64,000 bases of DNA from Leptospiria bacterium. Lineage in GTDB: Bacteria > Spirochaetota > Leptospiria > Turneriellales > CBDBES01. The stretch is taken from assembly GCA_965261485.1 (NCBI GenBank), contig CBDHCY010000005.1:1359616-1423615 (forward strand), in the 5' to 3' direction. Positions 3,311 through 51,086 of the stretch are shown here, one piece after another (within the stretch, counting starts at the first letter, position 1; the number at the start of each line of letters is the position of its first letter). Made by a program: the position numbers and the translations under genes. The notes beneath the pieces were generated by a model that was given only the letters and a program-made list of their open reading frames with translations, was not told where the DNA came from and ran no database searches.

Positions 3311-3324
3311 TTCTTACTATAGAG

Positions 3325-6327: not shown

Positions 6328-7749
<1,422 letters not shown>

Positions 7750-11355: not shown

Positions 11356-11358
11356 AAC

Positions 11359-11598: not shown

Positions 11599-11677
11599 AT
11601 TAATTCTCCTTATCTTTCATTATTTTAATTTCATTTATTCTTCCATATGATAGATGAAATGTATTTTCTATCGTATC

Positions 11678-12733: not shown

Positions 12734-12736
12734 GTG

Positions 12737-13063: not shown

Positions 13064-13244
13064 CCATAATATTACTCAGGCAAATATTGCTTAAATTAAA
13101 TACTTATTTGACGAGCCTTGAAAGAGGCCACTTCTCTCTCAAGAACTATAAAATATATCGTACAAAGACAACACAAGATTAAAAGATATTAACACTCCAT
13201 AAACCGAGGAGTTCAAATTAATTATATCTTTTAAACGACACGTC

Positions 13245-14399: not shown

Positions 14400-14454
14400 A
14401 TTTTCATAACTCCTTAATTATTTAATTTATCTTTTATTTCTAAAGTTTTAGGGC

Positions 14455-14796
14455 TTAACCTATCGCCTCTTCTCCTTTTTCACCTGTTCTAATGCGAATA
14501 CATTCCTGAATTTCTTGTATAAAAATTTTACCATCTCCAATATGTCCTGTTTTCGCTCCTTTAACAAGAGCAGCAATCGTCTTCTCAAGATAAGAGTCAC
14601 TAACAGCAATTTCAATACGAATCTTCTTTAAAAGATTAATTTCTTCTTTAGCTCCTCGATATGTTTCTGTGTAACCACCCTGACTACCTGAACCAAGTGC
14701 ATTAGTTACGGTCATTTTATTTATACTCGCACCAAACAATGCCCGCTTTACATCTGGGAGTTTATGGGGTTGTATAAAAGCAATTATTAATTTCAT
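14455..14796 (-). CDS. glnK: Nitrogen regulatory protein P-II
   Basis: 113 aa, canonical P-II fold sequence ([13 protein letters not shown]...[11 protein letters not shown]), directly downstream of amtB. Confidence 0.93.
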
Positions 14797-14838
14797 TTTA
14801 AATCCTCCTTAAAATTTAATATTTATCATCAAATAAAA

Positions 14839-21052: not shown

Positions 21053-24000
21053 TTATCTTGAGAAAAAATCTTCAACTTGGCTCAAGAGTGTTTCTTCCTC
21101 TACTTCATGCCCAACCCCGACAAGATCACTTCTTTCTGAAATCAATTGAGAGCTACCACCTTTAACAAACTCAGAAGCTCCACGTATTTTATGAGAGACT
21201 GTTCCCTGCCCTGACAACCAATACTCTTCGTAACTATAATCTCTAAATTTTCGATTTTGATTAGAAGCTTTCCATTTGCTCACTCGATCGTTTGCAGCAT
21301 ACGCCATATTTGCTGCAGCGACGTCTATATAATGCCTACCCATCGCATTTTTGCCACCAAGTTTTTGAAAAACGTACCAACGTATGTTAAGAAGAAGTTT
21401 TTCATTATCCTTTTTAAAATCCCTCTCATTATCATAGTCTACAGGACTTTTCAAGACAGAGACAGCCAATTTGCTAGAAGGTAAGCTTGAAATCCGCTTG
21501 CCAATAAGCTTTCTATTTATATAATCAGCACCAACCGAAGAAACTCCATCCTCATTCTCTACTAGATTGCCATGGCTATCTCTACTACCCCGAAACTTCC
21601 AAAAAGTTGGAATATAATCTAACATAAGATCAATATAAGCTACATTTTCAGATAAAGAAGCATGACGCATATTATGTGCATAATGAGTGCGATAAACTTT
21701 CTGAGCCTCTTCATAAAGTCTATCAGCTTCATTCCACGAATACCAATAAAAACCCGCATTTGTTTCATTTTGAGTTATGTCCCTTTCTTTTGCTAGCCTC
21801 ACACTTTCGAATAAACGCCGATCCCATGTTTCTTGCCTATTAGAGTGATAGGCAAAAGCCCAACTAAGTTGGCATCTCAAATCTGCAGAGATACAACGCC
21901 TAAGAGTTGGTAATTGATTTTCGGTTGCGAGATCCCAAGCGTCCCCTGGACCATGAAATAATTCAAGAGGAGCTGCACTACCATTAAGAGATTTAAGCCC
22001 AGCTATTGTAGTTTGATATGTATCATTGATTGATCTTGATGCATGAAGTTCTTCATGACTTCCACCAATCAATAATTCTTCACCTTCAGCACCATTTATA
22101 CTCACCGACCCATCACCACTCCAGTAACTAGCGTCGATAGTAATATTCATCATACGACTAGCACCCCATATTGCACCTGCGTATGAAGCATCTTTATTTC
22201 CATTATGCCCTACTTCCTTAACGGCGAAGACACCTCCACCTCCAAAATAAGATTGCTGCATTTCAAAAGCATTACCCGACCAACCCACGATACCGCCAAC
22301 TATATTATTAGCAGAGATTAAGGCATCACCAGCAAAATAACTATTCTGAAGTAAAAAATAGCCTTCATGAGCACCTATTATTCCACCGGCTATACCAAGA
22401 ACAGGTGAATTAAGAAAGTCTAGCCCTTGGGGAGATTTAACATTCTGTAGAACCTCATGATACCACGGAATTTGGCAATAATTTGCTGGATTATAATCGT
22501 CACCACCACCACCACCCTGACATCCTGAAACAAGTTTGAAATTGGCGGCGGCTAGCCATTTAGTTTCATTGTCGACAAGACGAGATGCAAAAGCACTCAA
22601 GGCCGACTCAAAGCTATCAGATCTTTCTGTCTCTCTATAAGAGCGGATATTTTTAGATACAAGAGTTGGACGAGCGGAAATTTCGCTAAGGGAGTAAACA
22701 TAACTATTTGTAATCATAGCATCACCTTGACTCATACCGACCAGACCACCAGCAACATTTTCAGAGTAAATCTTACCTTCTCCTTCTATTTTTTCTTCTG
22801 ATTCTTTTTTTGATTCTTTTTCTGATTCACCTGAATGGCGTATTGCTTTTTTTGCAGTAGAGAAGTAGCTATTAGTAATAAGCAAGTCGTTAGTCGCTCT
22901 CCTATTATAAGCAATTCTTCGCAAGTCTTTAGCTTCCTCAGTGGGCAGAAGAACATCTGGAACTTTAGCATAAAATCCACCACGAAGATAATCATGATAT
23001 GACCTTACCAACCCACGACTTCCATAGCTGTCGAGACCATTTCCATCTGTCCCTAGTTTCTTATATTGTTCTATAACTTTTGCGTAGTAGGATCTCTCAA
23101 ACGAAGGAAGGACGGACTTAATCTTTTTCTCTACTTGTATTCGAGAAGTTAAAAGTCCACCTACTTTTAGGTCGGTTCTATCTATCTCACTGATAACCTC
23201 AGTAAAAGTAGGATTGTTCCCGAGCCAAAAGTCATGAGGTATACCCATATTATGAGTTTCTTCGTTCCCACGCATAAAACCATGTTCTCCAAAAATGAGT
23301 ACACCATCAATACCCGCTTCTCCCGGGTCAATCTTTATCTCGTGTATAAGATCACCCAGAGCATTAGTCAAGGCATAAGTTCTATCCGCTCTCCACTGCT
23401 TTGATACTTTATTATCATCACCATTCAATGAATTATAACGATTTGTTTCTTCCGTTAAATTAAATAGGACTTTCCCTGCAGGAAGACTTAAGCTTCGACT
23501 ACCAAAATAACCGATCAAACCACCAGAGAAGGAGTCAACAGGATATTGAGATTCAATAGGGTATTCAGTATTAAGAGTAGCCACTGGGGTTAAATAGCCA
23601 GCAAGAATATCACCTCTACCCCATACAGCATCGGTATAAAATATAACATCACCGTCAGCGTAACCAACAAGACCACCTGAAAAAGACTTGAAAGGAGAGG
23701 AAGCTGAGACTCCACCACCACCAGAGAATGCACTTTCACGAACATCTAAGGTAGAACCAAAATTATATGAATCTTCACCACGAATCTCATCCATACCATC
23801 ATAATAACCAACGAGCCCACCAGCAGAGGAAAGAGAAGTGGAACCAGCAAAAACACCACCTCTTTTACCACTAAAGTTAGACTTTCTAATGCTCAGCCCA
23901 CCACCATTATCTTCATAACCAGTGCCAGAAAAGTACCCGACCAAGCCTCCTGAGAAGGCTTTTGAACGACCAGAAAAGGTAGACGAAGCAAAAACATGAA

Positions 24001-26485
24001 GGCCGTCAACATTAACCATCATAATCTCCAATTTTCCTCCAGGCCTACCCCGAACACCAGTACCGTCGAAATAACCAACAAGACCACCTGAAAAAGCATT
24101 AGACTCACTAACCCTCGAAGATTGAGAGGCATGTGAAGAAATATTACCTTCGCCACCAACCCAACTATCAACAATACTCAAATCAGTTCCTTTGATATCA
24201 CCAGCACCTAGACCAGCACTTGGACGACCATCAAAGTAGCCAATCATACCACCAGAATAATAATGGAAACGAGAAGCGAGGGGAGCATAAGAAGAGACCC
24301 CATAACCTTTTAGATAAACTTTAGTACGATAAATCTCTATTCTACCATCACCAGCCTCTGGTGTTTGTGCACCACCGCTAAGATAACCCACGAGACCACC
24401 AGAATAAGCACCGAAAAGACCAAAAGCAGAAACAGAGCCAGAAAAACCAGTACTCTCAATTTTCAACATATTTCTACGAGAATTTATTGAAGAACGAACG
24501 AATGATCCATCCTCACCTCGTAATCCCTTAAAAAAGCCTACAAAACCGCCAGCGTAACTACCAAAAACACCGTCAGAAAAGATACCTTCTACAGTGTGAA
24601 TCTTAATAAGCTCCGCTACTACATTATAAGACGATTTACCCACAATACCACCCGCATAGGCACTACCATTGGAAGAATGAGCAAAAACACCATCAACAAG
24701 AGTACGACTACTACTATACTCAATATGCCCATCAGATGCACCTACAAGACCACCGGCAGAAGCCCCTCCAAAACCTACGGCAGTAACTACGGCACGACTA
24801 TGAGTATCTCCAGAAGAGAATAATTCTTTGCCATAAGATACATTATGCATATATAAACGAGAAGGAGAACGACGCGAAAAAGATGGTCTAACACAGCCCA
24901 CTATACCACCAGCACCGACAATAGCCCACTCATTTTGACTAAGAGAAAAAGCAGAGACAGAAGCATACACATGAACGTTATTAATATTTACATTTTCCCC
25001 AGAAGATGAAGCAAGCCCCCCAGAACAGCCAGTAGAACGTAACGAACCACTTCGAATAATTAAATTTTTGACATCTACTCTCCTAGATCTGTGCCCTAAA
25101 GACCAGAATAAGCCAGAATCAGCAGAATCAATATTTACCCATAGATTCTGAATCTCATATTGATTACCATCAAATAAGCCAGTGAAGCTTCCCCAAGGTC
25201 TGACTCCTTGAGTTAACGCTCCAATAGGCACCCAACTATCATCTTGATCTGTATCAATTACGGTTACACTTTCACCTGCATCATCAGTGTCACCATCACT
25301 ATTTTTATCAATCGTTATTTCCTTCGTATCAATACGTCCATTGCCATTTCTATCGAGAGAATGAAGTAAGTCAATATTTCTTGCCAATTCATAGCCTACA
25401 CAACCACCCGCAGGACACCCCTGTGTATTGCCGCTACCAAGACTTGAAGTTTGGTAACTTGTACCCTCAAGATTATAACGAATATTATTCAACATGCTGG
25501 CATTATAAATTTCAATAAGACCATTACCATCTTTATCAACGACAGCCACAATCGCTATATCTATTGAAACCGCCGAGTTATAAAAGGAAATATCATCGGT
25601 AGACTCATTCGTTAAAACATCATGCGTAATGGAAGTCACCAATGTATCTGTTAAAAGGGAATGACTCACAACGATACGACGAGGTGTATTAAAATTTGAT
25701 TGAGTAAAAATAATATCTGATGGAGTGATTACCATATCACTATTCATAGAATCTAAACTTAATCGTACTTGCTTCCCCGGAGCGGGTTGATGACTAAGAT
25801 GAATAGTGTATTCTTTTTCTTCATCTTCATTAAAGCTTAACTCAGATTTAGAAAAAATCAATCGCCCGGCACCATCATCGATAAGAGCTCCATTCTCATC
25901 AACAGCACCACTATCATTATCTAAAATATTTACCATAACCCCATCTGCAGATAGCGACTCGTCTTCTTCAGCCGCATCAGAGATATAATGAGAGACATAC
26001 CCACTATAATCACCTCTAAAATCATTATCAGCAGCACTAATAATAACTCTTTTTTCTACATTCCAATCACCACGACTAAACTCAAGCTCAGAAGGATACA
26101 CACTCAGTGCAGCATGATCAGAAAGAATACGAATTGCTACAGGACTCGACGACGACGAAGGTTTACGATTAAGTTTAATTGTATAGGTTGATCGATTACC
26201 CTCCGCCAAACTAACTAAACCTGGCGATACTATAATACTTAACGGAGTATCAACACCACCCACACTTGCAAGGAATGTAATAGGAATCGCTTCTAAACTA
26301 TAGCCATCAACGCTTGGATTTGTAGACTGCAAAGTTTGCACCATAAGCTTACAACGAAGCTCAGATTCTTTAAACTGAACATTAGAAGCCTGGAAAGCAA
26401 ATTCAGACCAAGAACTCCAATTATTACTACCCCACGTCGTTTCATTTTTATTTATTTTAATTTGTGATAATTGTCGCAGACTCAC
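21053..26485 (-). CDS. Giant GLUG-repeat surface protein, body of a frameshift-split gene
   Basis: 1810 aa. It has Calx-beta-like modules (...VMVNILDNDSG) and a Ca-binding DKDGNGLIEI / DRNGNGRID / DKNSDGDTDD module. Dozens of degenerate GLUG repeats follow (AGGLVG, FSGGLVGY, ITNSY). The N-terminus lacks a signal peptide, which lies in the overlapping upstream ORF. Confidence 0.85.
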   Translation of the reverse strand: MSLRQLSQIKINKNETTWGSNNWSSWSEFAFQASNVQFKESELRCKLMVQTLQSTNPSVDGYSLEAIPITFLASVGGVDTPLSIIVSPGLVSLAEGNRSTYTIKLNRKPSSSSSPVAIRILSDHAALSVYPSELEFSRGDWNVEKRVIISAADNDFRGDYSGYVSHYISDAAEEDESLSADGVMVNILDNDSGAVDENGALIDDGAGRLIFSKSELSFNEDEEKEYTIHLSHQPAPGKQVRLSLDSMNSDMVITPSDIIFTQSNFNTPRRIVVSHSLLTDTLVTSITHDVLTNESTDDISFYNSAVSIDIAIVAVVDKDGNGLIEIYNASMLNNIRYNLEGTSYQTSSLGSGNTQGCPAGGCVGYELARNIDLLHSLDRNGNGRIDTKEITIDKNSDGDTDDAGESVTVIDTDQDDSWVPIGALTQGVRPWGSFTGLFDGNQYEIQNLWVNIDSADSGLFWSLGHRSRRVDVKNLIIRSGSLRSTGCSGGLASSSGENVNINNVHVYASVSAFSLSQNEWAIVGAGGIVGCVRPSFSRRSPSRLYMHNVSYGKELFSSGDTHSRAVVTAVGFGGASAGGLVGASDGHIEYSSSRTLVDGVFAHSSNGSAYAGGIVGKSSYNVVAELIKIHTVEGIFSDGVFGSYAGGFVGFFKGLRGEDGSFVRSSINSRRNMLKIESTGFSGSVSAFGLFGAYSGGLVGYLSGGAQTPEAGDGRIEIYRTKVYLKGYGVSSYAPLASRFHYYSGGMIGYFDGRPSAGLGAGDIKGTDLSIVDSWVGGEGNISSHASQSSRVSESNAFSGGLVGYFDGTGVRGRPGGKLEIMMVNVDGLHVFASSTFSGRSKAFSGGLVGYFSGTGYEDNGGGLSIRKSNFSGKRGGVFAGSTSLSSAGGLVGYYDGMDEIRGEDSYNFGSTLDVRESAFSGGGGVSASSPFKSFSGGLVGYADGDVIFYTDAVWGRGDILAGYLTPVATLNTEYPIESQYPVDSFSGGLIGYFGSRSLSLPAGKVLFNLTEETNRYNSLNGDDNKVSKQWRADRTYALTNALGDLIHEIKIDPGEAGIDGVLIFGEHGFMRGNEETHNMGIPHDFWLGNNPTFTEVISEIDRTDLKVGGLLTSRIQVEKKIKSVLPSFERSYYAKVIEQYKKLGTDGNGLDSYGSRGLVRSYHDYLRGGFYAKVPDVLLPTEEAKDLRRIAYNRRATNDLLITNSYFSTAKKAIRHSGESEKESKKESEEKIEGEGKIYSENVAGGLVGMSQGDAMITNSYVYSLSEISARPTLVSKNIRSYRETERSDSFESALSAFASRLVDNETKWLAAANFKLVSGCQGGGGGDDYNPANYCQIPWYHEVLQNVKSPQGLDFLNSPVLGIAGGIIGAHEGYFLLQNSYFAGDALISANNIVGGIVGWSGNAFEMQQSYFGGGGVFAVKEVGHNGNKDASYAGAIWGASRMMNITIDASYWSGDGSVSINGAEGEELLIGGSHEELHASRSINDTYQTTIAGLKSLNGSAAPLELFHGPGDAWDLATENQLPTLRRCISADLRCQLSWAFAYHSNRQETWDRRLFESVRLAKERDITQNETNAGFYWYSWNEADRLYEEAQKVYRTHYAHNMRHASLSENVAYIDLMLDYIPTFWKFRGSRDSHGNLVENEDGVSSVGADYINRKLIGKRISSLPSSKLAVSVLKSPVDYDNERDFKKDNEKLLLNIRWYVFQKLGGKNAMGRHYIDVAAANMAYAANDRVSKWKASNQNRKFRDYSYEEYWLSGQGTVSHKIRGASEFVKGGSSQLISERSDLVGVGHEVEEETLLSQVEDFFSR

Positions 26486-31027: not shown

Positions 31028-31143
31028 AGGTTTGTGCTTATTTTTTTAAAAAAAATTAATGTCGCAACTTTGCACATGACGTGTGAAAAGGGCAGATAAA
31101 AAAGAGACTATTTTCTGCTGATCACAAACAATGCCAGATCCGC

Positions 31144-32169
31144 CTATGGTCGTAAACGCTCAATCTCTTCTACAGAAAGGCCGGTGCTTCTTGAGATCAT
31201 GTTAATAGAGATACCCTCTGTCAATAGACTTTGAGCTACCTCAGCCTTGCCCTTAGTCATGCCCTCAGCCTTACCCTTAGTCATGCCCTCGATTATGCCT
31301 TCAGCTCTACCCTTAGTCATGCCTTCAGCTCTGCCCTTAGTTATGCCCTCAGCTCTGCCCTTAGTCATGCCTTCAGCTCTGCCCTTAGTTATTAGTTTTC
31401 TTGCAATGCTTTCCACATCCCCTCCTGCATTTGGTGAGATGTATTCCACCGCACTCTTTACAATAAAATCAATAGTAAACTCGCCAGTGCTAGTAATAAT
31501 ATAGTTCAATAAAACATCAAGCATTTTCTTATTCTCTTGAGAGATTCGTGCATAATAATCTTTGAAAAGATCTTCTAAGCGTGACCTGCTCGATAAAAAC
31601 CAAATATCCTGTAGACTTTTTAAAAATGCCTGTACCGCCACAGAGAAATCGGTAAACTCTGTTTTATCTGAACGAAGATCAAGTAATTCATAGTGAAAGT
31701 CTGGTATGTATTTTTGTAAAGCTTTTCTCAGATGCTCAGGAATCATCAAAGAACTGCTAAAAAGCGTAGGAATATCCCACTCTTTTTTTCCGTGATAAAG
31801 CACTAAAGGAATCACGGGCATTTTGCTTGTTTTGTAAATTCCAGCTAAATACATGAGAAGTTGTGAATGAATATTTTTTTCTTTATACGATTTATGTTCT
31901 ATCAGACAAAAAACGCCCAGCCTTTTTGATTCCGAAGATTCCGAATGTTCTGAATCTGATTGCTTTTTGATAGGTATGCTGTAGAGAATATCAGTGAATC
32001 GTTCTTGATCTGTTGCATCAATAAAGTTGCCTTTCTCTATTTTTAACTTTGTAAAGTCTAGCTCTGATGTGATCTCTTTAGGTAGAGCATTTTTAAGAAA
32101 ATCTACCGCGTAAGTTTTTTGTGATAAAACTTGTTTGGTTATGATGTCGTGTTGGTTTAGCTTTGCCAT
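31144..32169 (-). CDS. Rpn family recombination-promoting nuclease / putative transposase (YhgA-like, PD-(D/E)XK), copy A
   Basis: 341 aa. The N-terminus (NQHDIITKQVLSQKTYAVDFLKNALP) and the nuclease core (FTDILYS ... CLIEHKSY) fit the family. C-terminal TKGRAEG(M/I) octapeptide repeats are followed by a GLSVEEIERL tail. Confidence 0.8.
   Translation of the reverse strand: MAKLNQHDIITKQVLSQKTYAVDFLKNALPKEITSELDFTKLKIEKGNFIDATDQERFTDILYSIPIKKQSDSEHSESSESKRLGVFCLIEHKSYKEKNIHSQLLMYLAGIYKTSKMPVIPLVLYHGKKEWDIPTLFSSSLMIPEHLRKALQKYIPDFHYELLDLRSDKTEFTDFSVAVQAFLKSLQDIWFLSSRSRLEDLFKDYYARISQENKKMLDVLLNYIITSTGEFTIDFIVKSAVEYISPNAGGDVESIARKLITKGRAEGMTKGRAEGITKGRAEGMTKGRAEGIIEGMTKGKAEGMTKGKAEVAQSLLTEGISINMISRSTGLSVEEIERLRP
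31241..31392 (-). repeat. 24 bp coding tandem repeat in rpn-like gene A
   Basis: Six units of TCAGC(C/T)(T/C)T(G/A)CCCTTAGT(C/T)ATGCC(C/T) plus a 12 bp half unit, encoding (I/M)TKG(R/K)AEG. Confidence 0.85.
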
Positions 32170-32289
32170 GAGATGTTCATCTTATAATTGATAGACAAAG
32201 CAGAAATCATTAAAACCATTAAAAACTATTTTTGAAAGCGTCAATGAGGACCCAAGCTCTAAAGTTTGGGCAGGGCAGAATATTACTTA

Positions 32290-32640
32290 CTCCGCCCGGC
32301 GAGTAGACTCGCCACTCGTAACGGCGGTCGCCAGTCTCCGCCCAGCGAGTGCATCACTCGCGACTAGCGGTCACTCTTCGCCTAGCGAGCAAAGCATCAC
32401 TAGCGACTGTCGATCGGATACCCTCCGCCCGGCGAGCGAAGCGCCACTGGTGATCGGCACCCTCGCCTAGCGAGCAAAGCATCACTCGCGATTATCGGTC
32501 GCCACTCTTCGCACAACAAAGCATCACTCGCGATTATCGATCGCCACTCTTCGCCCAGAGAGCGAAGCATCACTCGCGATTATCGATCGCCACTCTCCGC
32601 CCAGCGAGCGAATCGCCACTCGCGATTGACGGTCGAGCTA
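32290..32640. repeat. Non-coding GC-rich degenerate tandem array, eight units of 38-47 bp
   Basis: Units start at 32290, 32336, 32376, 32423, 32461, 32507, 32549 and 32595. The consensus is CT(T/C)CGCCCAG(C/A)GAGCGAAGCATCACTCGCGATTATCGATCGCCACT. Unit 32549-32594 has 26/46 G+C in a ~30% GC genome. Units carry TCGCGA and CGATCG/ATCGAT palindromes and a CTTCGC-N7-GCGAAG hairpin. No ORF of 60 aa or more lies here. Confidence 0.9.
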
Positions 32641-32838
32641 TCGTTGCCCTTTGATCAGATCGCCGTATGATGCACATACACCGTCTGTTATTGAGCCGAC
32701 ACATCTTTTGATCGCAGGCAATTGCATATTGGTGCCTAGGTCCCAAGCTTTTGTGTTGTCAGTGCCACCACTCGGCAAACCATCAGGATGCGTGCCAGTT
32801 ATAGCTTGTAGCTGGGCTAGCGTAAGACCCCGTCGCAC
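32638..32838 (-). pseudogene. Out-of-frame C-terminal segment of the GLUG lipoprotein cassette gene
   Basis: It encodes LTLAQLQAITGTHPDGLPSGGTDNTKAWDLGTNMQLPAIKRC. The 1810 aa paralog has the matching terminal module (...GDAWDLATENQLPTLRRC). It overlaps the 604 aa ORF in another frame. Confidence 0.7.
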
Positions 32839-34564
32839 CTGCTACGTCCACCATAGCACCATTTGAAGCTGCAATGTTACCATTTCCGAGCATTTTTTTA
32901 ACGCCATTCGCACTTTGAGGTGCGTCGATATTCCAATAACTGTTTGTGATTGTCAAAGTACGAGCAACAGAAACAGAAGAAAAAGAACCCATCAGACCAC
33001 CTGAAAAAGAAGTACCAGCAGAAGCAGAAGAAATCTTACCAGAACCACTAGAATAACTATTCACTATCGTCAAAGAATCAGAATTAGAAGGAGAATTAGA
33101 TTCAGAAGCACCTATCAGACCGCCTGAATAAGAAGAGGAAGCAGAAGAGGAAATAGTAGCAGAAGAAGAAGAAATCTCACCAGAACCACTAAAATAACTA
33201 TTCACTATCATCAAAGAACCAACAGAATTACCCACCAGACCGCCTGAATAAACACGAGAAGAACCAGAAGAAGAAGAAACCCCACCAGAACCACTAAAAT
33301 AACTATTCACTATCATCAAAGAACCACCAGAATCACCCACCAGACCGCCTGAAAAAACACTAGAAGGAGAACCAGAGGAAGCAGAAACCCCACCAGAACC
33401 ACTAAAATAACTATTCACTATCATCAAAGAACCAACAGAAGTACCCACCAGACTGCCTGAATAAGGATTAATAGAAGAAGAATGAACCGATCCAGAGATT
33501 ACGCCTACATTGCGAATCTCAACAGTTCCAGCTATCACACCAAATAAACCTACACGATTAAAAGAACCATTCACCCAGAGGTTCGCTATGGTATGGTTGT
33601 TACCCTCAAAAATACCGGTGAATCGACTTTCATCATTAACCGTCAAATCATCGCCAATCGGCATCCAGCTTGTGTCTTTGCCCGTGCCTGTATCAATTAC
33701 CGTCACCTGCTTATCAAAGCCATCAGTCATGCTATTATCCGTCGTATCGCCATCGGCATTTGTATCAATGCCAATCATTATCGTATCAATCATCCCATTC
33801 GCTTTACCTGCATCTCCACCACCTGTATCAAGAAAATTCAAAAGATCAATATCTACTGCTAATTCATAACCGTTGCAACCAGTCGATGGGCAACCACTCG
33901 AGTCACCAACCCCACCATCCGAGGTCTTATAACTTGCACCCGCTAGATCGTGTCGCATATTATCGAGCATTGTAGCGGTATATATCTCAATCAAACCATC
34001 ACGATCAAGATCAGCAGTCGCAGTGCTCCTCACTCTCACATCAACGGTGTGACCATCTTGAAATGTTACAATATTAGGGTCGCTATCTATATTCGATATG
34101 ATCGTATGATTGATCAACCCAGTGATATCCGCCGAAATCTTATTAAATACACCATTTGCATCTGCTTTCCCTTTAACTATGATTGTTTGGGCGGCTTTTC
34201 CCGTGGTCTTCGTGAAGTTCACAACAGCAGGGCTTATCTGCAAGGCGTCGTTATCACTTGTAAGTGTAACTCGCACTGCTTTAACTAATGCCGAATCTTC
34301 ACTTAACGAGATTGTATACTCAACACCTGTGCCGCCCAGTATGTCATAAAAAGCAAGTGCATTCTCAGAGAGAATAACCTTGCCAATAACAGATTTATCT
34401 GGATTGTTCGGATTATTCGGGTTATCTGGATTATCTGGGTTGCCCATCTTCGATGAATCATCAGAACACTCAAATAATAAAAGACTAGTGACCACAGCCA
34501 TCAAGCCACCTTTGATCACGCGAGCCACATAAAGTCTCATCCAATATTTCATATTTTCACACAT
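32783..34564 (-). CDS. GLUG-repeat surface lipoprotein, short cassette paralog, frameshifted near the 3' end
   Basis: GAGGAGG lies 6 nt before ATG 34564, whereas the track start is 34597. The signal peptide has lipobox LLLFEC, followed by an NPD/NPN linker and a Calx-beta-like module. Next come DLDRDGLIEIYTATMLDNMRHDL, a Ca-binding D-rich module, NLWVN and five clean GLUG repeats (SGGLVG...LMIVNSYFSGSG). Confidence 0.8.
   Translation of the reverse strand: MCENMKYWMRLYVARVIKGGLMAVVTSLLLFECSDDSSKMGNPDNPDNPNNPNNPDKSVIGKVILSENALAFYDILGGTGVEYTISLSEDSALVKAVRVTLTSDNDALQISPAVVNFTKTTGKAAQTIIVKGKADANGVFNKISADITGLINHTIISNIDSDPNIVTFQDGHTVDVRVRSTATADLDRDGLIEIYTATMLDNMRHDLAGASYKTSDGGVGDSSGCPSTGCNGYELAVDIDLLNFLDTGGGDAGKANGMIDTIMIGIDTNADGDTTDNSMTDGFDKQVTVIDTGTGKDTSWMPIGDDLTVNDESRFTGIFEGNNHTIANLWVNGSFNRVGLFGVIAGTVEIRNVGVISGSVHSSSINPYSGSLVGTSVGSLMIVNSYFSGSGGVSASSGSPSSVFSGGLVGDSGGSLMIVNSYFSGSGGVSSSSGSSRVYSGGLVGNSVGSLMIVNSYFSGSGEISSSSATISSSASSSYSGGLIGASESNSPSNSDSLTIVNSYSSGSGKISSASAGTSFSGGLMGSFSSVSVARTLTITNSYWNIDAPQSANGVKKMLGNGNIAASNGAMVDVAGATGSYASPATSYNWHAS
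32932..33465 (-). repeat. Near-identical 105-108 bp coding tandem repeats (GLUG units)
   Basis: The plus-strand string CCAGAACCACTAAAATAACTATTCACTATCATCAAAGAACC recurs three times almost exactly. The protein units are SGGLVG(D/N)S(G/V)GSLMIVNSYFSGSGG(V/I)S... Confidence 0.85.
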
Positions 34565-34907
34565 AAAACGCCTCCTCAGACATTGACCGCATTTCATTAT
34601 GCCGATCTTGCAAATAAATTAAGTTAGAATCGCCTTCAAGTTTGATGGGTGCTCCAACACCACGAAAAAAATAAAATAAAAGGCCGAGGACCTCAGCAAA
34701 AGCCACAGCTTTTGCTGAAATAACATGCATAATGATCGTTAGGGCTAACGCCCCACTTGCAAAATTTTTGAGAGAAATGCCGCGAAGGCACGACCTATTT
34801 TTTTTAGAGAATAAACTAAGACCTAAGTCTAGTGTCTGTAGTTCTGTAGTTCTGTAGTTCTGTAGTTCTGTAGTTCTGTAGTTCTGTAGTTCTGTAGTTC
34901 TGTTCAT
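34557..34907 (-). CDS. Leader ORF containing the 8 bp repeat tract, with its stop overlapping the GLUG lipoprotein start (coding status uncertain)
   Basis: 116 aa ORF. ATG 34907 is followed 5 nt later by the (ACTACAGA) tract. Its TGA stop sits within ATGTGTGA at the downstream start. The Shine-Dalgarno sequence is weak (GGAAAG abuts the ATG). Confidence 0.3.
   Translation of the reverse strand: MNRTTELQNYRTTELQNYRTTELQTLDLGLSLFSKKNRSCLRGISLKNFASGALALTIIMHVISAKAVAFAEVLGLLFYFFRGVGAPIKLEGDSNLIYLQDRHNEMRSMSEEAFYV
34835..34903 (-). repeat. Octanucleotide tandem repeat, eight full copies plus a partial copy
   Basis: The plus strand reads TCTGTAGT x8 at 34835-34898, then TCTGT. On the minus strand the unit is ACTACAGA. 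Unit length is not a multiple of 3. Confidence 0.95.
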
Positions 34908-35068
34908 CTTTCCAAGCCCCGCACAGAGCAGATATTAGTCAACAATGCCTGCACATGTTGTCAACATTTTTTATCTTTTTTGATGTCGCAACTTTGCACA
35001 TGACGTGTAAAAAGGGCGGGTAAAAAAAGAGACTATTTTCTGCTAATCACAAACGATGCCAGATCCGC

Positions 35069-36094
35069 CTATGGTCGTAAGTGCTCAATCTCTTCTACAG
35101 AAAGGCCGGTGCTTCTTGAGATTATTTTAATAGAGAAACCCTCTTTCAAGAGACTTTGAGCTACTTCAGCTCTGCCCTTAGTCATGCCCTCGGTTATGCC
35201 CTTAGTCATGCCCTCGGTTATGCCTTCAGCCTTACCCTTAGTCATGCCCTTAGTCATGCCCTCAGTCATGCCCTCGATTATGCCTTCAGCTCTGCCCTCA
35301 GCTATTAGCTCGTCTGCAATGGATCTCATATCTCCTCCTGCCTTTGGTGAAATGTATTGCCCAGCACTTTTTACAATAAAATTAATAGTAAGCTTACCAG
35401 TGCTAGTAATAATATAGTTAAATAAATCATCAAGCATTTTCTTATTCTTTTGATAAATTCGTGCAAAATAATCTCTGAAAAGATCTTCTAGGCGTGACTT
35501 GTTCGATAAAAACCAAATATCCTGTAGACTTTTTAAAAATGCCTGTACCGCTACAGAGAAATTGGTGAACTCTGTTTTATCTGAGCGAAGATCAAGTAGC
35601 TCATAGTGAAAGTCTGGTATATATTTTTGTAAAGATTTTCTCAGATGCTCAGGAATCATCAAAGAACTACTGAAGAGCGTAGGAATATCCCACTCTTTTT
35701 TTCCATGATAAAGCACTAAAGGAATCACGGGCATTTTGCTCGTTTTGTAAATTCCAGCCAAATACATGAGAAGTTGTGAATGAATATCTTTTTCTTTATA
35801 CGATTTATGTTCTATCAGACAAAAAACGCCGAGCCTTTTTGATTCCGAAGATTCCGAATGTTCTGAATGTTCTGAATCTGATTGCTTTTTTGTTGTAGGT
35901 ACGCTGTAGAGAATATCAGTGAATCGTTCTTGATCTGTTGCATCAATAAAGCACCCTTTCTCTATTTGTAATTTTGTAAAGTCTAGCTCTGATGTGATTT
36001 CTTTAGGCAGAGCATTTTTAAGAAAATCCACCGCATAAGTTTTTTGTGATAAAACTTGTTTGGTTATAATGTCGTGTTGGTTTAGCTTTGCCAT
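35069..36094 (-). CDS. Rpn family recombination-promoting nuclease / putative transposase (YhgA-like), copy B
   Basis: 341 aa and near-identical to copy A outside the acidic SDSEHSE insert and the C-terminal (M/I)T(K/E)G repeat block. Confidence 0.8.
   Translation of the reverse strand: MAKLNQHDIITKQVLSQKTYAVDFLKNALPKEITSELDFTKLQIEKGCFIDATDQERFTDILYSVPTTKKQSDSEHSEHSESSESKRLGVFCLIEHKSYKEKDIHSQLLMYLAGIYKTSKMPVIPLVLYHGKKEWDIPTLFSSSLMIPEHLRKSLQKYIPDFHYELLDLRSDKTEFTNFSVAVQAFLKSLQDIWFLSNKSRLEDLFRDYFARIYQKNKKMLDDLFNYIITSTGKLTINFIVKSAGQYISPKAGGDMRSIADELIAEGRAEGIIEGMTEGMTKGMTKGKAEGITEGMTKGITEGMTKGRAEVAQSLLKEGFSIKIISRSTGLSVEEIEHLRP
35166..35305 (-). repeat. 12/24 bp coding tandem repeat in rpn-like gene B
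   Basis: CTTAGTCATGCC-type 12 bp subunits encode MTKG/MTEG/ITEG. Their order and number differ from copy A. Confidence 0.8.
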
Positions 36095-36292
36095 GAGATG
36101 TTCATCTTATAATTGATAGACAAAGCAGAAATCATTAAAAATTACTTTTGAAAATAAGAATTACATACTTTATAAATATGAAAATATATCAACTATCTCA
36201 AAACTATTATAAAAAAATAGTACATCTGAAAAGTATACTTCAAGAGTACAAAATATGATTTACACGGGAAGTTAGCTTCTTATTTATCCATC

Positions 36293-39727: not shown

Positions 39728-39899
39728 CTCCCCCTACAATTTACTCTAAAATAGAGTAAAAGTAATATAAAATCTAAAAAAAATGAAAAATTTGCAAAAG
39801 AAGTGATAATTTTATAAATTCTCTATAAATCTCAATATTTTTCATAACAATATATAAAATTATTTACAGGACTTTAAATTTCAAAATTTTGGAATCTGT

Positions 39900-39972
<73 letters not shown>

Positions 39973-40200
39973 TATTTTTATCATTTATTTAATATCTATT
40001 TGATAATTTGAATTTTATTCTGGAAGAAATTCTAATGACAATTCTGATAATTGTTTATAGTATTGATATGGCATAATTACCGGCACATCCAAGTGTAGTT
40101 CATAAATACTCAAACAATTATAAAATAAAAAAAACGAACAAAATATTAGTGGAAATATTTTTTGAATTGACATAGATAAACTCTAGTTTTAAATTAACAC

Positions 40201-46949: not shown

Positions 46950-49900
46950 CTAGAGGGGCCGGTTCCCTTTAAAGCCGAATTTTTTTAATCGATTTTCGAA
47001 AATACACTGCTCATAATTATCTGCCCTATCAGATTCCTCATTACGAAAACTATGATCAAAATTTTCTGAGTAATGCCAATCGTTGCTAATATTCAAATAA
47101 CCCACAACAGCACCTGAGTTATCCCCGGTAGTATCGATACTCCTAGGGCAAGCAAGCTCTGCTGCTCTCCTTGCTTCATCACGACACCTTGGCCACGTCC
47201 ACTGTCGACCAACGCAATAAGAGGGAACATCTGATGCAAGATATAGTGGAATATATACCTCAAATAAACTATTTTTTACCCTTAATTGACCCCCATAACC
47301 ACCACGACTAGGTGCCGTCCTATATTCAGAGTCTAGAAATTTTTCACCCCAAGCTCTTTTCCTGATATTGTGAACATCTATTGGAAAAAGTTTATCATGT
47401 ACAGCAAGATTATCTTTAATCCACTTTGTTATACCCCCATAACCACCTTCAATAGTAATATGGTTCGTAAACAGATCAAACTTATAACTCCCGGCTGAAC
47501 GCCCCCTCTCAGGAACATGACCCTTAACACCATTCAGACCAATAAAATGACCAACTAAACCACCAGCATAAGTCCAATCATCATTACGAGGAGAAGTAGA
47601 GGAGACAGTGCCCCTTGCCCTAGAATTTATGATCTTAAGTGTGCCACCATGGCCACCATCGCCACCATCGTTAAAACCAACAATACCACCGTTACCAGCT
47701 CTAGCATCAAAATAACCCACTAAACCACCAGAATGAACTGGAAATCTAGAATGCTTGGTGTCAGAAGAAACACTACCCTTAAAAATAACTTCTTGTATAT
47801 CTAGCGTAACTCCACTTTTGCCGCTCTCTGCCCCTTGGATATTACGCCAAGCATCACCCCTTAAACCATCATCACCTTTGGCCATAAAATGACCAATTAA
47901 ACCACCAGAATGAGCACCAACAACAGAAACATCAGGATTCAAGCCCACCAGCAAATTTATACCGGTTAATCCGACTACAGAATGAACGCGAATACCATCA
48001 ACATTAAGGCCATTACTAAGATCACAATCTATTATTTTCAAAATAGTTCCACCAACATCAGGAGCCCCTCTCCCATCAACCAAACCCAACAGACCACCGG
48101 CATAAGCACCATCACCAGCTTCAGCGAAAATACTTTTAGCCTCTCTTCCTCCATAATCACTGGGACGAAAATAACTATCACTAATCTCCCACTTAAGTTT
48201 AAGATCAGAAACTCTACCAATAAGACCACCAGAAGAAGAGTCAAATTTTGAGACGGATGAGATTAGAGGTAACTTACGAGAATTCTCAGATGATTCAAGA
48301 AATACTGAACTATTTTCAATAAACATCTGAATTCTATTACCAGAAACCTCACCCAGCAAACCACCAGCAGAGACTCCCGCCAATCCATTAGATAAAATAC
48401 CGTCAACTAGATCATCACCGTTAGCCACCCTCAGATTAAGCAACACTTTATTATTTACGAGGCGAATAGTAAACGCTCTACTATTGGAGCTTCGTCGTTC
48501 TTTTTCTTTATGCCTAAGCAACTTGCTATCATGGGCGGGAAAATGCCCTATAGTGGGGTCTATTTGGTATATTCCTCTACCTTTTTTAGTCCCCTCTGCG
48601 TAGCGATCATTACCAGAACCACTCCAGTATTTAGAAACCAAGCCATCATAAGAACCGACTTTATTCTTTGTGACACAAGTAAATCCACATCCCTTACTAC
48701 CATCCGACACAATACTTTCTTTAAAATCTGTAGTGTAGAGTCGTCCAAAACCTTGTTTGACCTTACCCACCAAACCGCCAGAATAAGCACTAGCACGAGG
48801 GGCATAAGAATATACTCCAACTTTTCTCTCACGAGAATCAGAATGAACAGGTGGAATAGATCTTGTAATAGGGGGAGCAATACGATCATCACTACGCCTC
48901 AGAGACTCAGGAGACCAAGAAACATCCCAGTAATCAGGGTGACTTTCAAAAATATTAGAGTCAAAAAGTATAGAATTTGGATACCCATAGAATTCATTTG
49001 GATGAAATATCTCACCCAGTAAACCACCAGAATAGGCGGAACCAGTGGAGGAATAAGAAGAAACTCCATGCTTCCCTCTAAAAGCATTGTATTTAATATC
49101 CAACCCCAAAGAATCATATAAACCTACTAAACCACCAGCGTAAGCATCTTTGTTGGCAGAAGATGAGACTCCATAACCATAAATTTGAATAGAGTGAATA
49201 ATACTATCAACAGCTACCAACCCATTTTCATTACGATGACCTATCGAACGACCTAAAAGACCTCCAGCATAAGCATTACCAATTTCAGAAGAAGCATGCA
49301 CAGAACCTGATAGTATGTGCACATTTTTTATATAATTAGGATAGAAGGATGAGGTAACACCAAACAAGCCAGCATAAGCATCACCACTTGAAGATGCAAC
49401 ATTCACCCATAAATTTTTAATGAAATGATTATTTCCATCAAAAGTTGCTGTAAAAGGATTAGAGAGATCACCAATAGGTACCCAGCTTGTATCTTGGGCT
49501 GTATCAATAACAGTTATCCGCTCACCATCTTCAGTATCATCACCATTTCCATTCTTATCAATACCAACTGTTGTAAGGTCAATACGACCATTTTCGTTTG
49601 TGTCAAGTAGGTCTAATAAATCAATATCTACGACCAACTCATATCCAGTGCAACTACCATCTCGACCTGGGCAACCAAGCTGATTAATTGCAGCATCAGC
49701 CCCAGATTTATATCCTATTCCATATGGCATATGACGGATATTATTAAAATGTTTAACAGTCGAAATTTCAATGAGACCATCACCATCATCATCAACAATT
49801 GGTCTAACCACCACATCTATTGAAGGCTGTCGATTTAAAAAGAAAGTATCGTCTGTAGATTCTCCCTTTAAAAGACGATGTTCAACTGATAATTTTATAG

Positions 49901-51086
49901 ATTCTGGTAAATTTCTTACAGAAGAACGCACAATAATTGCAGCCCCTGACAAATAATTTGTAGAATCAAAGGTAAAGGATGAAGGAGAAACCCTCAACCG
50001 TGAATCATTAGAACGCAAAGCTAATCGTACTTGCTTACCCGGAGAAGGGGCATGACTCAAATGAATCATATATGTTGCACCAGTGTCAGCTCCTTCATCA
50101 AGTTGAACAGAAGAAGGCAGAAGCAAGCCTCCAAGGCGAGAAGCACCATCATTGTCAGTGGCACCATCATCATCATCAAGAATGTTAACCATAACCCCAT
50201 CTAATGCCAACGATGACACATATCCTGAATCGGTGCTTCCTTCTACAACAAAATGAGACAGGCTTGTGCCATACACACCTCCAGACCCATTATCTTCAGC
50301 TATAATTTCAACTCTCTGTGGAATATTCCAATTCCCACCATTACCTTGCTCACTGAAAAAAGTAAGCTCAGAAGGATTTACTCGTAACCATGAACCAGGA
50401 CTTATACGAATCGATACGAACCCAGCCCCTGTTGTCGCTGATAACGCAGGCTTAGTACGAAGCTTAATTGTATAAGATGAGCGTTGATTCTCCATCACAC
50501 TAATCAAACTATCTGACACGACAATACCCGGCGATGTACTCGTCTCAAGAGCACTACCAAGAAATTTAATAGGAATCGCCCCCATGTTATAGCCATCAAA
50601 TTCTAAATTTGTCGACTGTAATGGATCTAATAAAAGTTCGCAATCAATGCTAGACTCTTGAAGTTTCATATTCGGTGCTCTAAAAATAAATTCAGACCAA
50701 GCAGACCAATTATTCTCCTCCCACGTCACTGCATCCGTGCCCATCAAAATGCTTGATGCTTGATGAACATTATTACCACAATTAAGTCTAGCCTCAAGAG
50801 TCACATCTTCATGACTCGAAAGATTTTCTTTGAGTTGAAAACCAATTGAGCCTTTCTCTCCTTTATGAACGAGAATACTCTTTTTGTTAGACCCAATAAT
50901 AGTATTTGATGAATTTGTAAGAGGACCAGAACATTGAATAAGACAAGCTAAAACAATAGAAAGACCGATTCTCCAAGCCCAAGTAAACAAAGAATATCTT
51001 TTAAAAAAATTAAAAAATACTCGGGTTAAAAATTGTAAATTTAGTCCAAAATATCGTATTGTTTTTTTCATTCTTAATTTTCTCAT
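46950..51086 (-). CDS. Large GLUG-repeat surface protein (intact paralog)
   Basis: 1378 aa. AGGAGG lies 7 nt before the ATG. The signal peptide ends LACLIQCSG, followed by Calx-beta-like modules (VMVNILDDDDG). Next come VDDDGDGLIEISTVKHFNNIRHM, a Ca-binding D-rich module, NLWVN and many degenerate AYAGGLLG/HSGGLVGY GLUG units. Confidence 0.9.
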   Translation of the reverse strand: MRKLRMKKTIRYFGLNLQFLTRVFFNFFKRYSLFTWAWRIGLSIVLACLIQCSGPLTNSSNTIIGSNKKSILVHKGEKGSIGFQLKENLSSHEDVTLEARLNCGNNVHQASSILMGTDAVTWEENNWSAWSEFIFRAPNMKLQESSIDCELLLDPLQSTNLEFDGYNMGAIPIKFLGSALETSTSPGIVVSDSLISVMENQRSSYTIKLRTKPALSATTGAGFVSIRISPGSWLRVNPSELTFFSEQGNGGNWNIPQRVEIIAEDNGSGGVYGTSLSHFVVEGSTDSGYVSSLALDGVMVNILDDDDGATDNDGASRLGGLLLPSSVQLDEGADTGATYMIHLSHAPSPGKQVRLALRSNDSRLRVSPSSFTFDSTNYLSGAAIIVRSSVRNLPESIKLSVEHRLLKGESTDDTFFLNRQPSIDVVVRPIVDDDGDGLIEISTVKHFNNIRHMPYGIGYKSGADAAINQLGCPGRDGSCTGYELVVDIDLLDLLDTNENGRIDLTTVGIDKNGNGDDTEDGERITVIDTAQDTSWVPIGDLSNPFTATFDGNNHFIKNLWVNVASSSGDAYAGLFGVTSSFYPNYIKNVHILSGSVHASSEIGNAYAGGLLGRSIGHRNENGLVAVDSIIHSIQIYGYGVSSSANKDAYAGGLVGLYDSLGLDIKYNAFRGKHGVSSYSSTGSAYSGGLLGEIFHPNEFYGYPNSILFDSNIFESHPDYWDVSWSPESLRRSDDRIAPPITRSIPPVHSDSRERKVGVYSYAPRASAYSGGLVGKVKQGFGRLYTTDFKESIVSDGSKGCGFTCVTKNKVGSYDGLVSKYWSGSGNDRYAEGTKKGRGIYQIDPTIGHFPAHDSKLLRHKEKERRSSNSRAFTIRLVNNKVLLNLRVANGDDLVDGILSNGLAGVSAGGLLGEVSGNRIQMFIENSSVFLESSENSRKLPLISSVSKFDSSSGGLIGRVSDLKLKWEISDSYFRPSDYGGREAKSIFAEAGDGAYAGGLLGLVDGRGAPDVGGTILKIIDCDLSNGLNVDGIRVHSVVGLTGINLLVGLNPDVSVVGAHSGGLIGHFMAKGDDGLRGDAWRNIQGAESGKSGVTLDIQEVIFKGSVSSDTKHSRFPVHSGGLVGYFDARAGNGGIVGFNDGGDGGHGGTLKIINSRARGTVSSTSPRNDDWTYAGGLVGHFIGLNGVKGHVPERGRSAGSYKFDLFTNHITIEGGYGGITKWIKDNLAVHDKLFPIDVHNIRKRAWGEKFLDSEYRTAPSRGGYGGQLRVKNSLFEVYIPLYLASDVPSYCVGRQWTWPRCRDEARRAAELACPRSIDTTGDNSGAVVGYLNISNDWHYSENFDHSFRNEESDRADNYEQCIFENRLKKFGFKGNRPL

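Follow-up and report, generated by a model that had tools for sequence, protein, structure and literature searches.

A tandem array of rpn and GLUG-type putative lipoprotein genes in a spirochaete genome

Results

An rpn-GLUG module among housekeeping genes

The locus described here occupies positions 31056 to 36153 of a 64,000-nucleotide stretch of contig CBDHCY010000005.1 (Leptospiria bacterium), which is referred to throughout as the window. All coordinates are window coordinates, and the genes of the locus lie on the minus strand, so that the reading order runs from high to low numbers (Table 1). Read in this direction, the module is composed of an rpn gene, a conserved tail, a leader with a (ACAGAACT)n octanucleotide tract, a gene for a putative GLUG-type beta-helix lipoprotein, and a GC-rich minisatellite, here called rep46. 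The window holds one complete unit of this module together with the rpn gene and tail of a second, that is, 1⅓ units, and the identification of the locus as a tandem array of a lineage-specific, multi-copy rpn-GLUG module is well supported by the comparisons below.

The two rpn genes, rpnA and rpnB, are carried on co-directional direct repeats of ~1.18 kb (31056-32237 and 34980-36153) that have 93% column identity, each spanning ~60 bp upstream of the rpn ATG and a ~88-bp tail past the stop codon. The copies differ at ~7% of positions and by several indels. The block found upstream of rpnB also precedes every rpn copy in three related contigs (L005, L006, and L007), and the tail also lies 3' of the rpn copies in L006 and L007, with 46-bp repeats in its place in L005. 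The first-pass annotation of this DNA had described two co-directional Rpn-like genes on such repeats, a conserved tail after both, a leader open reading frame (ORF) with an octanucleotide tract, a GLUG lipoprotein gene, and eight GC-rich repeats of 38-47 bp, and each of these was recovered, the lipoprotein gene with the reservations given below.

The overall GC content of the window is 33.5%, and that of the cassette is 39-60% in 300-bp windows. Relative to a background GC content at third codon positions (GC3) of 0.218 ± 0.036 for 46 ordinary window ORFs, GC3 is 0.326 for the cassette GLUG gene and 0.348 and 0.339 for the rpn genes. Two other GLUG paralogs of the window have a background-like GC3 of 0.245, yet an overall GC content of 40%. 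The compositional break that had been placed in the 2.7 kb between the repeats is therefore real but not limited to that segment, as it covers the rpn repeats as well, and it is only partly an amino-acid effect. The raised GC content of the block may stem from a foreign source or from biased gene conversion among the copies of a recombining family.

Table 1. Features of the rpn-GLUG locus in reading order
Feature	Position	Strand	Basis or remark
rpnB upstream region, start of direct-repeat copy B	36095-36153	-	aligns with 32170-32237
rpnB	35069-36094	-	intact, 341 aa; PF04754 E 2.6e-33; TIGR01784 58.3 bits
Candidate RpnS start in rpnB (AGGAGG and in-frame ATG, codon 256)	35327-35339	-	AGGAGGAGATATG; 86 aa
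12/24-nt repeats in rpnB, encoding xxEG/xxKG units	35164-35301	-	Tandem Repeats Finder
rpnB tail, end of direct-repeat copy B	34980-35068	-	~88 bp; 92% identical to 31056-31143
Leader between rpnB and GLUG gene	34565-34979	-	86-95% identical to three L006 cassette leaders
Two TTGAC boxes in leader	34965-34937	-	sequence
Stop-free leader ORF	34557-34907	-	sequence
(ACAGAACT)n octanucleotide tract	34830-34903	-	Tandem Repeats Finder: period 8, 9.1 copies
Perfect 12-bp hairpin in leader	34717-34694	-	sequence
Terminator-like short stem and long T-run in leader	34697-34680	-	sequence
GLUG-type gene as assembled	32783-34564	-	593 aa from ATG 34564; GAGGAGG 6 nt before ATG
GLUG Cys33 codon	34468-34466	-	conserved
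9-nt in-frame repeats, NPD/NPN linker after lipobox	34395-34441	-	L006b: 21/30-nt repeats at same place
Gene-conversion-like tract in GLUG gene	33597-33760	-	window equals L6b at 29/30 consecutive informative sites
105/108-nt repeats, SGGLVG...NSYFSGSG beta-helix turns	33160-33464	-	Tandem Repeats Finder: 2.9 copies, 92%
G4 run breaking GLUG frame	32828-32831	-	one G removed gives 641-aa protein aligning with homologues to last residue
Out-of-frame GLUG C-terminal module	32638-32838	-	LTLAQLQAITGT...WDLGTNMQLPAIK...GQR
rep46 minisatellite, non-coding	32290-32650	-	~8 units, 38-47 bp (~46 bp), 61.5% GC
rpnA upstream region, start of direct-repeat copy A	32170-32237	-	same block 5' of L005 and L007 rpn
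rpnA	31144-32169	-	intact, 341 aa; PF04754 E 5.6e-34; TIGR01784 65.1 bits
Candidate RpnS start in rpnA (AGGAGG and in-frame GTG, codon 252)	31426-31414	-	sequence
24-nt repeats in rpnA	31239-31392	-	Tandem Repeats Finder
rpnA tail, end of direct-repeat copy A	31056-31143	-	then unique AT-rich flank

Array structure of the module in related contigs

Searches anchored on rpn led to the contigs L005, L006, and L007, all from a single metagenome (ENA sample ERZ26693861) of a related strain. In L006, a GLUG gene and a rep46 array of ~23 units are followed by three units of rpn-tail-leader-GLUG-rep46, the minisatellites of these units ranging from ~6 to 19 rep46 units. In L005, the 3' end of a GLUG gene is followed by rep46, rpn, rep46, rpn, and rep46, with identical junctions on both sides of both rpn genes. 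Such junctions are what unequal crossover between flanking minisatellites would produce, and serving as a substrate for unequal recombination is the sole function of rep46 for which there is evidence. In L007, a GLUG gene and rep46 are followed by two rpn genes. Beyond the last of these, the tail, a leader stub of ~25 nt, and a single rep46 unit form a cassette-deleted remnant. Head-to-tail units thus number 1⅓ in the window and three in L006, and L005 and L007 each have a pair of adjacent rpn genes, all at different loci with different flanks. A further contig of the same sample, L011, starts inside the leader and continues with a GLUG gene, a two-unit rep46, and housekeeping genes, with no terminal rpn. 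A leader, ribosome-binding site, start codon, and signal peptide are present in every full unit examined (window, three in L006, and partly L011). The earlier suggestion that the cassette is excisable by repeat-repeat recombination is plausible, as rpn pairs with no, one, or three cassettes occur in the related contigs, but neither excision nor expansion was seen at the window locus itself.

A 37-nt element, GCTTGACAGGCTGAGRCTTTAAAGTTAGGCTCACCTA, which has a TTGACA, closes the rpn arrays of L005 (3629-3665) and L007 (4359-4395) and is followed by different housekeeping genes in the two contigs. It is absent from the window and could be a shared promoter or boundary element.

In more distant loci, the link between rpn and GLUG is kept in part. 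In L008, whose Rpn is 54% identical, rpn is immediately preceded by a co-directional GLUG gene of 702 aa and has an MmeI-like restriction-modification gene after it, and in L010 a solitary rpn is convergent with a 921-aa GLUG gene. In L009, rpn lies beside a different surface protein and not a GLUG gene. Taken together, rpn adjoins GLUG in six of the seven rpn-anchored loci (the window, L005, L006, L007, L008, and L010, but not L009). By a rough estimate, the chance of rpn-GLUG adjacency within 3 kb is ~8% per rpn (~30 GLUG genes in 2.13 Mb), and the sample is small. The related genome ERZ25069296 provides two contigs, L013 and L014, in which GLUG genes are clustered with IS1-like, DUF772/DDE_Tnp_1_6, and HTH_28/32 insertion sequence (IS) elements. 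A scan of GTDB genomes for Rpn returned distant loci of other phyla only.

Several features of these contigs stand apart from the array itself. The GLUG-rpn pair of L008 is part of a segment (11106-16152) with the MmeI-type restriction-modification gene and an AAA_21/DUF4435 gene, a defence-island context as reported for rpn. In L009, a G25 homopolymer (9101-9125) lies beside the aBig_2/Decapeptide surface-protein gene that adjoins rpn, and identical arrays of five 18-nt copies (11646-11741 and 12551-12641) flank an IS110-type transposase gene. Three tandem GLUG C-terminal modules of ~63 aa, which may be partial cassettes, follow one GLUG gene in L013 (128-298, 353-517, and 572-736).

Mosaicism of the cassettes

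The window unit was aligned with the three units of L006, a 2x long-read contig, which are designated L6a, L6b, and L6c. The rpn gene, the tail, the leader, and the signal-peptide region are 89-100% identical in all pairs. Within the GLUG gene, the similarity is segmental. The window resembles L6a (92-97%) over 34470-34220, is closer to L6b (95%) and L6c (90%) than to L6a (73-79%) over 33750-33550, and is then L6a-like again. The middle segment contains the gene-conversion-like tract listed in Table 1, outside of which the window follows L6a at 71% of the sites that differ between L6a and L6b. The maximum chi-square of 59.6 was reached in 0/200 permutations. Among the L006 units, L6b and L6c are 100% identical over ~900 bp, and the 5' halves of the rpn genes of L6a and L6c are identical. 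Complete identity over ~900 bp next to neighbours that differ by 25% indicates recent exchange. Overall, the pattern is one of segmental exchange, as is expected of a recombining array.

Copy number and source organism

The source contig has a length of 2,133,161 bp and carries at least 20 distinct rpn products and ~29 GLUG-family products. In the public sequencing run X1, single-copy contigs end at 31026 and restart at 36124, with multi-copy depth between these positions. The X1 k-mer depth is ~55 in the unique flanks, and the summed depth at ≥90% likeness is 460-1760 for rpn, 1030-3590 for the leader with its tract, and 330-1580 for the GLUG body, indicating that the whole block is multi-copy and not rpn alone. 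Both X1 and a further run, X2, hold contigs identical to the window across the cassette. The rpnA protein is 93% identical to another paralog of the same genome compared with 85% to rpnB, and a recent duplication therefore does not account for the two flanking rpn copies.

The ATP synthase beta subunit encoded in the window (6328-7731) is 86-88% identical to its nearest matches among ENA metagenome-assembled genomes (MAGs), followed by MAGs of 'Spirochaetia bacterium' at 82% and by Turneriella or Leptospiraceae at ~78-80%. These identities place the source organism among the uncultured members of Leptospirales. The neighbours of the locus are housekeeping genes (FliD, thioesterase, DUF547, ABC ATPase, KdsA-like, SurE, and Pth), and no other defence gene was found beside it by PADLOC. 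A tRNA-Phe(GAA) at 39899-39973 is the sole Rfam or ARAGORN match in the window.

The rpn genes have the hallmarks of the RpnL/RpnS type

Both rpn products match PF04754 (Transposase_31/YhgA-like) and TIGR01784 ('Rpn family recombination-promoting nuclease/putative transposase') above the cutoffs, which are 21 bits for PF04754 (scores 117.9 and 115.8) and 52.1 bits for TIGR01784. The score of 49 against the RpnA equivalog model, which has a cutoff of 583, shows that rpnA and rpnB are members of the Rpn family and not RpnA orthologues. The catalytic positions of the PD-(D/E)XK fold, H7-D8, D60, and E91-H92-K93 in rpnA, are kept in an alignment of 128 homologues that includes rpnB, in which the IEHK-encoding sequence lies at 35815-35801. 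D60 and E91 are invariant (128/128), and position 93 is Lys in 110 homologues and Gln in 15. These residues are the equivalents of D11, D63, E82, and Q84 in Escherichia coli RpnA, the mutation of which abolishes activity (PMC5350276). Searches with Rpn gave only a weak 'putative invertase' match to the C-terminus in PADLOC and low-complexity noise only in a PDB sequence search.

In the characterized RpnL/RpnS pairs, a toxic nuclease is blocked by a short antitoxin made from an internal start (Zhong et al. 2023, PMC10400941). RpnS has 4-residue repeats that start 8-20 residues after this internal start and whose number sets cognate specificity, and a plasmid-borne RpnL/RpnS copy defends against phages (PMC10400941). 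Both rpn genes of the window contain an internal AGGAGG 4 nt before a predicted RpnS start codon (GTG at 31416-31414 in rpnA and ATG at 35329-35327 in rpnB), and 4-residue repeats, with units that include RAEG, MTKG, and ITEG, begin ~11 residues downstream. Nearly all lengths of full-length paralogs (301, 317, 325, 329, 333, 337, 341, and 349 aa) leave a remainder of 1 when divided by 4. The genes therefore carry the hallmarks of the RpnL/RpnS gene-within-gene type, with RpnS as a prediction only.

The best sigma-70-like matches of the region (10/12) lie inside the rpn 3' ends, at 35121-35149 and 31196-31224 on the minus strand. They point to the tail and leader and could drive transcription of the leader and the GLUG gene.

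The GLUG-type gene encodes a putative beta-helix lipoprotein

The GLUG ORF extends over 32783-34597, and the start at 34564, which is backed by a Shine-Dalgarno sequence, is more likely. The predicted N-terminus, MCENMKYWMRLYVARVIKGGLMAVVTSLLLFEC, has the shape of a signal peptide, with a basic region, a hydrophobic stretch, and LLFEC. A comparison of 32 GLUG paralogs showed F31 and C33 to be invariant. The residue before the Cys is an atypical Glu or Gln, and lipidation is for this reason likely but not certain. The numbers of linker and of beta-helix repeats vary among the paralogs.

The reading frame is broken at a G4 run. The out-of-frame C-terminal module matches the C-termini of a 1810-aa paralog and of the homologues in L006, L010, L013, and L014. 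In X1, a G4 unitig of depth 50 and a G3 unitig of depth 31 merge into a unitig of depth 85, and X2 has G4. Given the unitigs of both runs, the frameshift is not simply an assembly error, and the G3 form is either a population variant or a paralog with the same sequence in this part.

The assignment to GLUG is based on faint precomputed matches of homologues and on fold similarity. No match to Pfam Glug (PF07581) was obtained even at E up to 10 with the frame-corrected protein and two large paralogs, and precomputed PF07581 matches exist in some homologues only, described as 'faint' where graded. The AlphaFold model of a paralog with 83% identity (P0264) has a mean pLDDT of 65, with values of 74-89 over most of the repeat region. 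Its top PDB match is 3n6z, a putative IgA1 protease from Bacteroides ovatus (E 6.6e-8; TM 0.60 on the target), and it also matches 7uvk, an IgA1 protease, with chaperone and Calx-beta type Ig-like folds ranking next. The model is all-beta over residues ~50-170 and consists of many short consecutive strands in the repeat region. The Ig-like matches probably stem from the all-beta region, and a GLUG-type beta-helix fold resembling that of IgA1 proteases is predicted with moderate confidence. The gene proposed by the first-pass annotation is thus present and supported by fold similarity, but it is frameshifted and has no direct match to the Pfam family.

The GLUG paralogs expected elsewhere in the window are two large genes at 21053-26485 and 46950-51086, which encode proteins of 1810 and 1378 aa with 34-35% identity to the cassette protein. 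Neither adjoins an rpn, leader, or rep46, and the 1810-aa protein has a weak EF-hand-like match.

The leader contains a hypervariable octanucleotide tract

An ATG at 34907 is located immediately 5' of the octanucleotide tract, which contains a stop codon in no frame. In all four cassettes compared (4/4), this ATG is in frame with a stop-free frame of ~90 codons, and the leader frame terminates 8 nt into the GLUG start (ATGTGTGA). The chance probability of the shared in-frame ATG is ~0.05, which is suggestive and not decisive. Two observations speak against coding: the substitutions between copies of the leader ORF are mostly non-synonymous and look neutral, and its homologues form two lineage-restricted clusters alone among 1.84 billion representatives. 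No match for the leader ORF was found in Pfam, NCBIfam, or PADLOC, and Rfam gave nothing for the tail, leader, or minisatellite, either with gathering thresholds or with E relaxed to 1.

The tract has ~9 copies in the window and 15, 10, and 14 copies in the L006 cassettes, in leaders that are otherwise 86-95% identical, and it is clearly hypervariable in length between copies. A polymorphic short tandem repeat upstream of the gene, the mark of a contingency locus, is hence seen between the four cassettes. The tract could act via the frame of the coupled leader ORF, via spacing, or via attenuation.

The rep46 minisatellite

The units of rep46 have in common CGAGTGATGCTT, CTCGC, and an invariant GGGC, and their period is not a multiple of 3. 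Arrays of 5-23 units lie 3' of GLUG genes and flank rpn in L005, L006, and L007. The core GGGC(A/G)GGAG, beside CTCGCTGG, resembles Chi-like and eukaryotic minisatellite core motifs. Folding of 48 units with RNAalifold gave no consensus structure or covariation (-0.23 kcal/mol, 3 weak pairs), and the whole-array fold has a z of -2.0 only. A role as a structured RNA or single-stranded DNA element was rejected, as no consensus structure exists over the 48 units. In JGI metagenomes, five single chance matches to rep46 were obtained on unrelated high-GC contigs, with no arrays, rpn, or GLUG.

Discussion

The functional reading that we favour, and hold to be probable, combines homology-driven resizing and shuffling of the arrays, tract-based variation of expression, and co-amplified rpn genes of a toxin-antitoxin/defence type. 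Arrays would grow, shrink, and swap segments through unequal homologous recombination and gene conversion, with the dispersed 1.2-kb rpn repeats and the minisatellites as partners, and such exchange would diversify a large surface-lipoprotein family. Slippage of the 8-nt tract may tune each cassette or switch it on and off. The rpn genes would most likely be toxin-antitoxin/defence genes as in the characterized family, co-amplified with the cassettes and supplying homology for recombination, and the Rpn nuclease may add double-strand breaks that stimulate exchange. The earlier proposal of a dedicated surface-variation locus survives in so far as the cassettes are mosaic, the tract lengths vary, and rpn adjoins GLUG at six of the seven loci reached through rpn; the dispersal of rpn as a family of ~20-30 copies, in which the two flanking copies are not each other's closest relatives, and the rpn-free GLUG clusters with IS elements do not fit the word dedicated. 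Generic dispersal of rpn with no preference for GLUG had been named in advance as a finding that would count against that proposal. The dispersal is indeed found, together with a GLUG gene beside rpn at those six loci.

Several points weigh against the favoured reading. The association counts are not independent, because L005, L006, and L007 come from a single metagenome and were found via rpn. A contig of the same sample, L012, has three consecutive GLUG genes without rpn, and neither rpn nor leader nor rep46 was found in ERZ25069296; diversification of GLUG therefore does not need rpn. As its flanking genes differ from those of the window, L006 is another locus, so that a change of copy number at an orthologous site is not demonstrated, and at its 2x coverage it has probable indel errors. 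The contigs of X1 and X2 are short-read contigs that break or collapse at repeats, and variation at the window locus was not seen directly. The window GLUG copy, being frameshifted, may be a pseudogene, and a promoter scan of the leader gave no convincing sigma-70 site. Finally, the little or no sequence specificity of RpnA lends no support to targeted cleavage of the minisatellite.

A more modest explanation is that the locus is static on ecological time scales and rpn an incidental passenger, a selfish toxin-antitoxin/defence gene copied along with the adjoining gene in an old tandem duplication. The link of rpn to GLUG would then reflect common descent of the module and the piling up of repeats in dispensable surface-protein regions. 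That the duplication is not recent follows from the identity of the rpn copies (85% for the proteins, 93% of columns for the DNA), the GLUG copy is frameshifted, IS elements occupy equivalent positions beside GLUG in L013 and L014, and the X1 and X2 contigs do not depart from the window across the cassette. The spread of rpn and its arrangement in arrays by duplication are, moreover, known (PMC10400941). A static locus does not account, however, for the differences in number of every repeat type between cassettes, for the clear recombinant mosaicism, for the several junction types (rpn directly onto minisatellite, cassette-deleted remnant, and full units), or for the ~900-bp identity of L006 units whose neighbours differ by 25%. 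We regard both the static passenger and this account of the rpn-GLUG link as possible but rather unlikely.

The opposite view, in which Rpn itself drives variation, is somewhat less likely still. Rpn would then cleave in or close to the minisatellites, and repair templated by other cassettes would rewrite the GLUG gene and resize the arrays. The window, L005, L006, and L007 all have GLUG, minisatellite, and rpn in this order on one strand, GLUG-then-rpn is also found in L008 despite the divergence of its Rpn, rpn is directly embedded in minisatellite arrays, the catalytic residues are kept in both rpn genes, the cassettes are mosaic, and the block-wide rise in GC3 is compatible, by our inference, with biased gene conversion. 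RecA-independent recombination is raised by E. coli Rpn, but only when it is overproduced (Kingston et al. 2017, PMC5350276), and RpnA cleaves DNA with little or no sequence specificity in vitro (PMC5350276). The role demonstrated for the family is toxin-antitoxin activity and phage defence (PMC10400941), in L012, L013, and L014 GLUG families have expanded and clustered with no rpn present, the minisatellite has no conserved structure, and ordinary homologous recombination makes tandem arrays mosaic anyway. An extended version, in which Rpn has been recruited as the break-making engine of surface-lipoprotein diversification and rpn and minisatellites bracket the cassettes as hot spots, is quite improbable, and equally so its addition that a paralog-specific RpnS 4-residue repeat code keeps each nuclease in check.

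Two structural explanations carry little weight. The composite mobile element considered in the first-pass annotation would have the rpn copies act as IS-like ends that mobilize the lipoprotein cassette, and it draws on the Pfam family name Transposase_31 and on the position of a compositionally distinct block among housekeeping genes. A search for terminal inverted repeats and target duplications of the block and of a single rpn unit gave a best inverted match of 8 nt and, in the flanks, direct repeats that are AT-rich 5-mers only. The ends of the repeated unit vary between loci, and the threefold head-to-tail repetition of rpn and cassette in the related strain is a signature of tandem duplication and not of discrete insertions by a composite transposon. 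Rpn proteins are not regarded as transposases, as no autonomous transposase with this fold is known and there is no evidence of rpn transposition (PMC10400941). This explanation is largely refuted and very improbable. Even harder to sustain is an assembly artefact, in which a single rpn would have been falsely duplicated around a misjoined cassette. Misassembly is common in repeat-rich regions, and no short-read contig of X1 reaches across the repeats, but the rpn copies differ at ~7% of positions and by several indels, contigs of two independent runs match the copy-specific and cassette sequence exactly, and contigs assembled independently from another sample show the same architecture.

The natural role of the widespread Rpn proteins is still debated, the proposals including promotion of recombination, toxin-antitoxin activity, and phage defence. 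With dozens of intact rpn paralogs interleaved with a mosaic surface-lipoprotein family, the question of Rpn recombination in vivo becomes testable. The 8-nt repeat, the in-frame repeats, and the minisatellite also make this a probable contingency-locus family in Leptospirales. If Rpn were the engine of breakage, its physiological role would lie in programmed surface variation; if rpn is a passenger, the arrays would still show how dispersed toxin-antitoxin genes can supply the homology that remodels surface-protein arrays.

Comparison with known systems

Composite transposons and IS-flanked cargo resemble the locus in that two direct genes annotated as 'transposase' flank a cargo of foreign composition. 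They differ in having inverted repeats, target duplications, and a known transposase chemistry, none of which is present here, where the ends vary between loci. Chromosomal superintegrons, an example of cassette arrays that toxin-antitoxin genes stabilize, also hold toxin-antitoxin-type genes among variable cargo, with a repeated non-coding element after each cargo gene. In contrast, the rpn-GLUG arrays have no integrase and no attC-like folded site, and a stabilizing role of rpn would be pure conjecture.

Likeness to the vls/vlsE system of Borrelia and to tprK of Treponema is one of sequence features, with no switching observed here. It includes a spirochaete lipoprotein, cassettes of far higher GC content than the genome with a strong strand skew, and segmental mosaicism. 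Unlike those systems, the arrays have no single expression site with promoterless silent cassettes, and the donors would be full genes in arrays. Simple repeats are located upstream of the surface-protein genes vlhA of Mycoplasma gallisepticum, (GAA)n, and hmw of Haemophilus influenzae, 7-bp repeats. As in these families, the GLUG genes form a large paralog family that lies partly in tandem clusters, each with its own start and signal peptide and with a variable repeat upstream. Here the unit is 8 nt long, the repeat sits within a stop-free leader ORF 275-340 nt ahead of the start, rpn genes and minisatellites are interspersed among the GLUG genes, and the module is known from sequence alone.

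The closest relation is with the RpnL/RpnS systems (PMC5350276, PMC10400941), which share the PF04754 PD-(D/E)XK domain and its conserved acidic and Lys positions, variable 4-residue repeats in a helical C-terminal region, an internal ribosome-binding site and start, many paralogs per genome, and arrays of the kind formed by direct tandem duplication, which lack inverted repeats and target duplications. For the proteins of the window, the toxicity, antitoxin, and defence roles are predicted. What differs is that the duplicated unit regularly holds a surface-lipoprotein gene with a leader and a GC-rich minisatellite, that rpn lies beside GLUG at most loci, and that the neighbours are housekeeping genes, although L008 has a restriction-modification neighbour. 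The earlier statement that no system with this architecture had been described is too strong, as tandem-duplication arrays of rpn without inverted repeats or target-site duplications and variable 4-residue repeats are already published (PMC10400941). Targeted full-text searches of the literature returned nothing linking Rpn to antigenic variation and nothing relevant on Leptospira GLUG proteins. The Rpn gene type, its 4-residue repeat variation, and rpn tandem-duplication arrays are thus already known, and what the present arrays add is that the duplicated unit regularly includes a repeat-laden surface-lipoprotein gene together with a GC-rich minisatellite, that rpn and GLUG adjoin across the lineage, and that the cassettes are mosaic.

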